NCBI RefSeq assembly: GCF_024502345.1
Contig: NZ_JALDNN010000001.1
From: Escherichia coli
GTDB lineage: Bacteria > Pseudomonadota > Gammaproteobacteria > Enterobacterales > Enterobacteriaceae
DNA length: 64,000 nt
Strand: one strand, 5' to 3'
Positions 56,162 to 56,479 of the stretch are shown here, in pieces (positions within the stretch are counted from its first letter, which is position 1; each line of letters begins with the position of its first letter). The position numbers and the translations under genes are program-made. The notes beneath the pieces were generated by a model, which was not told where the DNA came from, made no database searches, and saw nothing but the letters and a program-made list of their open reading frames with translations.

Positions 56162-56479
56162 TCAATTTCTCCGCTGCTCTATTGCCGTAATCGCTTCCAC
56201 GCTTTGTTGATGACGACCGCCTTCGTACTGTGCGCCCAGCCACGCATCCACAATCATTTTTGCCAGTTCGAGGCCAACCACTCGTGAACCAAAAGCCAGT
56301 GCAACTTCACTGGCGTAATGCGGATAATCAGTGCGCTCTGACGACCTGGTTTCTTTATCAATCCCCTCACTCATTGACCATGAATAAAAGGCTGGCACAG
56401 CAACACAGAATCCTGCGGTGCCAGCGACATGACCGCCCATTGCTCCGGTACGTTTTTTAATAAAAAACACCGGTTGCAT
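56162..56479 (-). CDS. Short ORF of uncertain status; weak resemblance to the C-terminal motifs of PAP2-family phosphatases
   Basis: 105-aa ORF with GGH and YPHYASEV motifs loosely like PAP2 motifs 2/3; no first motif; may be a remnant or spurious. Confidence 0.25.
   Translation of the reverse strand: MQPVFFIKKRTGAMGGHVAGTAGFCVAVPAFYSWSMSEGIDKETRSSERTDYPHYASEVALAFGSRVVGLELAKMIVDAWLGAQYEGGRHQQSVEAITAIEQRRN

Follow-up and report, generated by a model that had tools for sequence, protein, structure and literature searches.

A probable rpiB relic at the site of D-allose regulon loss between yjdP and yjcS in Escherichia coli

The 105-codon, ATG-initiated open reading frame (ORF) on the minus strand between yjdP and yjcS is very probably a non-functional relic of rpiB, i.e., a pseudogene that marks the site of D-allose regulon loss in this lineage of E. 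coli. It appears in the ORF list of the window (the whole stretch of 64,000 nt that was analyzed) at exactly 56162–56479, as the initial annotation had stated. According to the proposed course of events, the ancestral locus would have had the same order as in K-12: yjdP - rpiB - alsR alsB alsA alsC alsE alsK - yjcS. A deletion of ~6.56 kb, with its ends at rpiB codon 27/28 and in the last codons of alsK, would have removed the rpiB 5' end, the promoter-bearing upstream spacer, and the als operon, and a 159-bp in-frame deletion between CTGGCT direct repeats would have taken out RpiB residues 52–104. The surviving rpiB codons (about 28–51 and 105–149) would by chance be in frame with 35 antisense codons reaching up to an ATG, which gives 105 codons. 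The homology, the breakpoints, the distribution among genomes, and the recurring disruption are observed; both the order and the mechanism of the two deletions are what we infer.

Family assignment and lost active site

Profile and structure searches agree on the family of the ORF. According to the Pfam-A hmmscan at E ≤ 10, the sole matching family is PF02502 LacAB_rpiB (E = 8.2e-11), with a score of 42.5 bits versus a gathering cutoff of 24.7; the match spans only the end of the profile (102–138 of 138) and a second short stretch. As for NCBIfam, the rpiB model TIGR01120 scores 73.5 bits, below its full-length equivalog cutoff of 138.65, and every other model likewise remains under its own cutoff. 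The E. coli RpiB structures 1NN4 and 2VVR match the ORF with E ~1e-32 in two separate stretches, in which ORF residues 38–65 correspond to RpiB 29–56 and ORF residues 60–105 to RpiB 104–149. The 3' 138 nt of the relic have 98.6% nucleotide identity to K-12 rpiB, in synteny. Judging from these comparisons, the homology of the ORF to rpiB is far beyond chance. Homology to the RpiB/LacA/LacB family is thus present and the full-length domain is absent, with only RpiB 29–51 and 105–149 being kept.

Regarding the active site of E. coli RpiB (1NN4), we take Cys66 to be the catalytic base, together with Thr68, and Asp9, His10, His99, and Asn100 to line the site. According to the alignment to K-12 RpiB, residues 1–27 and 52–104 are deleted, and Asp9/His10, Cys66/Thr68, and His99/Asn100 all fall there. 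Because the N-terminal strand with Asp9/His10, the Cys66/Thr68 loop, and His99/Asn100 are gone, the product of the relic, if made, cannot be a sugar-phosphate isomerase, as far as its sequence indicates. The equivalent residues Cys69, His11, and His102 are those targeted in the excerpted part of a study of the Leishmania homologue (PMC4783025).

Breakpoints relative to the K-12-type locus

The window was compared pairwise with locus L002 of the K-12-type genome DH1, where the order is yjdP - rpiB (minus) - alsR alsB alsA alsC alsE alsK (plus) - yjcS. K-12 rpiB (alsI/alsB; ribose-5-phosphate / allose-6-phosphate isomerase B; 1NN4, 2VVR) is the direct ancestor gene of the relic. They share the position beside yjdP, the strand, and recognizable RpiB segments 29–51 and 105–149; in the relic, however, codons 1–27 and 52–104 and the rpiB–alsR spacer are gone, and an unrelated N-terminus of 35 residues is found instead. 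Four blocks match L002 (Table 1), and therefore two deletions separate the window from the K-12 arrangement. The relic thus qualifies as a truncated known gene, and both losses (159 bp and about 6.56 kb) have breakpoints that can be placed on L002. The names of yjdP and yjcS are transferred from an annotated E. coli locus that is 99.3% identical; phnN, phnO, and phnP lie upstream of yjdP.

Table 1. Features of the yjdP–yjcS region of the window and blocks matching the K-12-type locus L002.
Feature	Window position	Strand	L002 position	Identity to K-12 type	Basis
rpiB relic, entire chimeric 105-aa ORF	56162..56479	-			ORF list, Pfam, NCBIfam, annotated loci
rpiB 3' fragment, codons 105-149 + stop (ORF codons 61-105)	56162..56299	-			alignment to K-12, PDB match
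Deletion 1 junction, one AGCCAG/CTGGCT copy left	56294..56299				alignment to L002
rpiB internal fragment, codons about 28-51 (ORF codons about 37-60, IDKETRSSERTDYPHYASEVA)	56300..56369	-		88.8%	alignment
Deletion 2 junction, 7 nt unassignable filler	56370..56376				alignment to L002
alsK last codon + stop (CCATGA) and hairpin 3' of alsK	56377..56429	+			local alignment, folding
68-bp stretch found only in relic-carrying genomes	56430..56497				genome searches, folding
Retained spacer upstream of yjcS	56498..56731	+		about 92-94%	homologous to K-12 alsK-yjcS spacer
yjdP, intact same-strand neighbor downstream of relic	55764..56093	-			name by transfer
yjcS (alkyl sulfatase), intact neighbor on opposite side	56732..58717	+			name by transfer
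Block 1: yjdP, 68-nt spacer, rpiB codons 105-149	55700-56299		12001-12600	98.2%	
Block 2: rpiB codons about 28-51	56290-56369		12750-12829	88.8%	
Block 3: alsK last codon + stop, then hairpin	56377-56429		19386-19438	about 77%	
Block 4: yjcS upstream spacer and gene	56508 onward		19440 onward	97.9% overall (56508-61500)	

Deletion 1 is in frame, has a length of 159 bp, and takes out rpiB codons 52–104. Since the window keeps one copy of CTGGCT (AGCCAG on the plus strand) where K-12 has two, 159 bp apart, the deletion may have arisen by slippage or illegitimate recombination between 6-bp direct repeats. Two otherwise intact rpiB variants from public contigs (P0023 and P0030) carry other in-frame deletions, the right edge of which is the same '...|LAFGSR' boundary; the shared edge could point to CTGGCT as a hotspot for deletions or stem from faulty assembly. 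A 158-aa protein with an odd N-terminus and no 159-bp deletion (P0002) was considered as an intermediate that would order the two deletions. It is, however, probably a chimeric assembly, because its source is a single metagenome contig with 2.8x coverage, ending 15 nt upstream of the gene, and its arrangement occurs in 0 of 5426 complete E. coli genomes.

Deletion 2 has a length of about 6,556 bp (L002 12830–19385) and includes rpiB codons 1–27, the rpiB–alsR spacer, alsR, alsB, alsA, alsC, alsE, and alsK. Because its right end falls exactly at the alsK stop codon, the entire yjcS upstream spacer is preserved, which in K-12 is bound in vitro by NtrC and the RpoN holoenzyme (PMC8743547). Block 3 has a Smith-Waterman score of 28, with a maximum of 14 among 1000 shuffles. 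ORF codons 1–35 come from reading the alsK stop codon and the alsK–yjcS spacer in antisense, with codons about 17–35 covering 56377–56429. An interpretation of these 35 codons as a degenerate rpiB N-terminus ('GGHVAG' versus 'CDHVGF') was rejected: its score of 12 is matched by 40 of 1000 shuffles, whereas the alsK stop and the downstream hairpin do give a significant alignment with this DNA.

The hairpin downstream of alsK (56391–56425, versus L002 19400–19436) persists in the relic haplotype although its sequence has diverged by about 23%, with a folding energy of −19.1 kcal/mol versus −21.6 for its K-12 counterpart; one stem pair is changed on both sides, from UUGGCAC/GUGCCAA to CUGGCAC/GUGCCAG. 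A second hairpin (56445–56478), located in the 68-bp stretch, spans the ATG and the first 10 codons of the ORF. The segment 56366–56510 occurs nowhere else in E. coli. A foreign origin of the diverged junction-proximal DNA was considered and found unneeded, as the 11.6% divergence is within the synonymous divergence of the neighbors (0.07–0.14).

As for other origins of the ORF, the initial annotation read it as a possible phosphatase remnant with PAP2-like C-terminal motifs and a missing N-terminal motif. That the ORF is what remains of the C-terminus of a PAP2-type (acid or lipid) phosphatase has almost no probability left. What suggests it is that 'SR...' and 'H' residues in GSRVVGLELAKMIVD and GGRH look similar by eye, a resemblance that no tool reproduces; these same residues are RpiB 107–149, encoded by the nearly identical, syntenic 3' end of rpiB. 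A regex search for the PAP2 motifs KX6RP, PSGH, and SRX5HX3D finds none of the three in the ORF, and PAP2 (PF01569) gives no Pfam match at E ≤ 10, so that PAP2 phosphatases have no demonstrable likeness to it. The N-terminal motif that seemed to be missing is accounted for by the deletion of rpiB codons 1–27 and 52–104. The suggestion of a decayed gene fragment, in turn, holds with a different parent, given the 3' identity to rpiB, the synteny, and the profile matches. It is also highly improbable that the short state is ancestral and that als/rpiB was inserted in K-12-type lineages, which would leave the ORF with no deletion behind it. Two observations would fit an insertion: the interval is already known to vary and to house alternative islands (OI167 in O157:H7), and its junction-proximal sequence is unusually diverged; the divergence, however, also fits the local neutral level. 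Moreover, the ORF combines two non-contiguous rpiB pieces in the right order and frame with the alsK stop and downstream hairpin, and therefore only deletion from the full locus would explain it.

Reading frame, start context, and divergence

The length of the ORF alone is no proof of a gene, since the two strands of the window contain 93 ATG-initiated ORFs of at least 105 aa. Several long antisense ORFs are located nearby, and the ORFs overlapping this one on both strands (76, 55, and 52 aa) have no family match above noise. Regarding expression signals, the 20 nt before the ATG (AATACTGAGCACAATTAATCA) show no Shine-Dalgarno-like run, and the ATG is enclosed by an ORF-strand hairpin with a folding energy of about −12 kcal/mol. 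The number of sigma-70-like promoters on either strand of 55600–56900 is 0, versus 2.4 expected in shuffles, although a scan based on a strict consensus may overlook genuine promoters in the AT-rich spacer (33% GC). A sigma-54 promoter, either in the TGGCAC-containing hairpin or in the yjcS spacer, has no match with ≤2 mismatches in 56380–56720, and Rfam reports no RNA family at E ≤ 1 for 55500–56900. These values agree with the unconvincing start context given in the initial annotation, and the ORF is presumably not expressed. The annotated start also varies by pipeline, with three methionines yielding 105, 92, or 70 aa.

The frame is open in most carriers; among a spread sample of 19 relic rows, all are ungapped over the 318 nt and 1 has a stop. 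The relic has two main allele groups, represented by the window type ('...SEGIDKETR...', ~486 genomes) and the type of strain 55989 ('...SEVIDKDTR...', ~1069 genomes), which differ at 8 nt (5 non-synonymous and 3 synonymous). One allele (L006), which PGAP marks as a pseudogene, is interrupted by an internal stop, another (L007) has lost the start to a further deletion, and the protein search reveals at least 12 frameshifted or shortened variants. Rare variants, such as L61P, A56P, G16D, R89S, V67G, and R45W, are radical and evenly spread over the ORF. The middle piece has a pN of 0.074 versus K-12, compared with 0.000–0.008 for phnK–phnP, yjdP, and yjcS. At 11.6%, the overall divergence of this piece approximates the synonymous values of the neighbors, as would be expected of a neutral relic dating back to the local haplotype split. 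Judging from the handful of about 1570 alleles that were aligned, selection does not seem to maintain the open frame.

That the chimeric ORF is a young functional gene, maintained by selection and encoding a small protein in which 35 new N-terminal residues precede two RpiB segments, seems very improbable. This reading is favored by the open frame in most of the carrier genomes and in both main allele groups, by the exact protein being found on 136 contigs, and by its annotation as a CDS. Repeated and independent disruption of the frame, substitutions that are mostly non-synonymous and often radical, the start disputed among pipelines, an ATG placed in a hairpin, and a promoter and ribosome-binding site that were searched for and not found all speak against it. 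At ~2.5% allele divergence, common descent suffices to keep so short an ORF open.

A DNA-level role may deserve slightly more weight. The divergence from K-12 jumps at the deletion 1 junction, from 2 differences in the 135 coding nt of the 3' piece to 8 in the next 69 nt, and the 3' piece of the 55989-type allele has no difference from K-12 at all (0 of 135). Thus, the 3' piece is nearer to K-12 than a long-neutral relic should be, and constraint there is possible. The candidate explanations for this step are recent homologous recombination with strains carrying an intact rpiB, extending to the edge of the deletion, and constraint on the DNA, e.g., on a promoter or leader of yjdP, which we take to be a gene for an uncharacterized repeat protein. 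Conservation of the rpiB 3' DNA (56162–56299) as cis signals for yjdP is rather unlikely, and it would be compatible with the pseudogene reading. The 0–2 changes in the 135 nt of the 3' piece, versus the 8 in the adjoining 69 nt and a rough neutral expectation of about 8, are in line with such signals, as are the start of yjdP 68 nt downstream of the relic stop codon on the same strand and the fact that both deletions spare the upstream regions of the neighbors, the right one keeping the NtrC/RpoN-bound yjcS spacer of K-12 (PMC8743547). However, 55600–56900 contains no promoter-like site, an exchange up to the deletion edge yields the same pattern, and the variation among five aligned relic alleles (2 of 138 in the 3' piece versus 7 of 180 in the 5' part) is too small to be meaningful. 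Taken more broadly, it is improbable that the relic is still partly active, whether as a 105-aa protein with a new role or, somewhat more likely, with its 3' segment as the yjdP promoter or leader. If true, the latter would explain why divergence jumps at the internal junction, from about 1% to about 12%.

Distribution of the relic and its significance

The relic with both junctions (318 nt, 97.2–99.7% identity) is present in 1573 of the 5426 complete E. coli genomes (29%), including 55989, O104:H4, O111:H8, and O128ac:H12. About 3400 genomes contain only its 3' 138 nt, within an intact rpiB, and about 450 have neither the relic nor intact rpiB. The internal fragment has at most 90–92% identity to any intact E. 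coli rpiB. An exact 26-mer over the deletion 2 junction is found in 0 of 100,044 species-representative genomes, a search that misses diverged copies. According to these data, the interval 56094–56731 (versus L002 12395–19664 and L003 9360–18343) is a three-state variable spot in E. coli, with rpiB and the als regulon (K-12 type), the OI167 lmvKR/lmu mannose-utilization island (O157:H7), or the 318-nt rpiB relic. The O157:H7 island between yjdP and yjcS comprises a hybrid histidine kinase, a sugar ABC transporter, a D-lyxose/mannose isomerase, an aldolase, and a kinase.

Loss of the allose genes has been reported before. In the available excerpts, E. coli W (phylogroup B1) lacks alsBACEK and is unable to use allose (PMC3032704), and the allose loci of O157:H7 are replaced by OI167 (PMC10128022). 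Both cases concern the same yjdP–yjcS interval, with alsBACEK likewise absent; these excerpts describe absence or replacement of the operon and do not describe a residual rpiB fragment or the two breakpoints.

Several further observations concern the surroundings of the relic. Across the 10 kb of 50000–60000, none of the 5426 complete E. coli genomes exceeds 97.5% identity to the window, whereas the relic ORF by itself reaches 99.7%; the phn side is an unusually diverged haplotype (pS 0.10–0.14 versus K-12), and the locus is therefore a mosaic. Between phnP and yjdP (55620–55745), GC-rich imperfect inverted repeats of the CCCTCACCC...GGGTGAGGG type look like a common enterobacterial intergenic repeat element. 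A repeat of ~100 bp is arranged in tandem upstream of yjdN in K-12 (L002 1–457, with matches at 100-bp offsets), and diverged inverted copies with 76–81% identity are located in the phn region of the window (44001–44163, 46624–46726, and 51957–52040). Among the database records, NZ_CM135829.1 (H148, 4.83 Mb), labeled 'strain DH5alpha', has the relic in place of the intact rpiB of K-12 and therefore probably bears the wrong strain name. Four 'plasmid' records that match rpiB, e.g., the 18-kb NZ_CP083871.1, are probably chromosomal fragments.

Identical and near-identical copies of the relic are annotated in RefSeq as CDS named 'RpiB/LacA/LacB family sugar-phosphate isomerase'. WP_001183282.1 and WP_001183287.1 (105 aa; e.g., in E. 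coli ECONIH4 and 55989) represent the same ORF at the same locus as in the window; the window protein differs from the ECONIH4 copy by 1 aa and from the 55989 copy by 5 aa, with no structural difference. Their RefSeq name implies an intact enzyme, which is contradicted by the anatomy of the relic. The exact 105-aa protein of the window is found on 136 public contigs labeled E. coli, named either as above or 'ribose 5-phosphate isomerase B'.

The relic is a common and already annotated leftover of als-regulon loss. Its biological weight is small, being the footprint of lost D-allose catabolism in 29% of sequenced E. coli. Its value is mainly in annotation: the database name ('RpiB/LacA/LacB family sugar-phosphate isomerase' or even 'ribose-5-phosphate isomerase') overstates the fragment, and metabolic reconstructions could therefore wrongly assign RpiB activity to such strains. 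The junctions at 56294–56299 and 56370–56376, in turn, provide clean markers of the als-minus haplotype.
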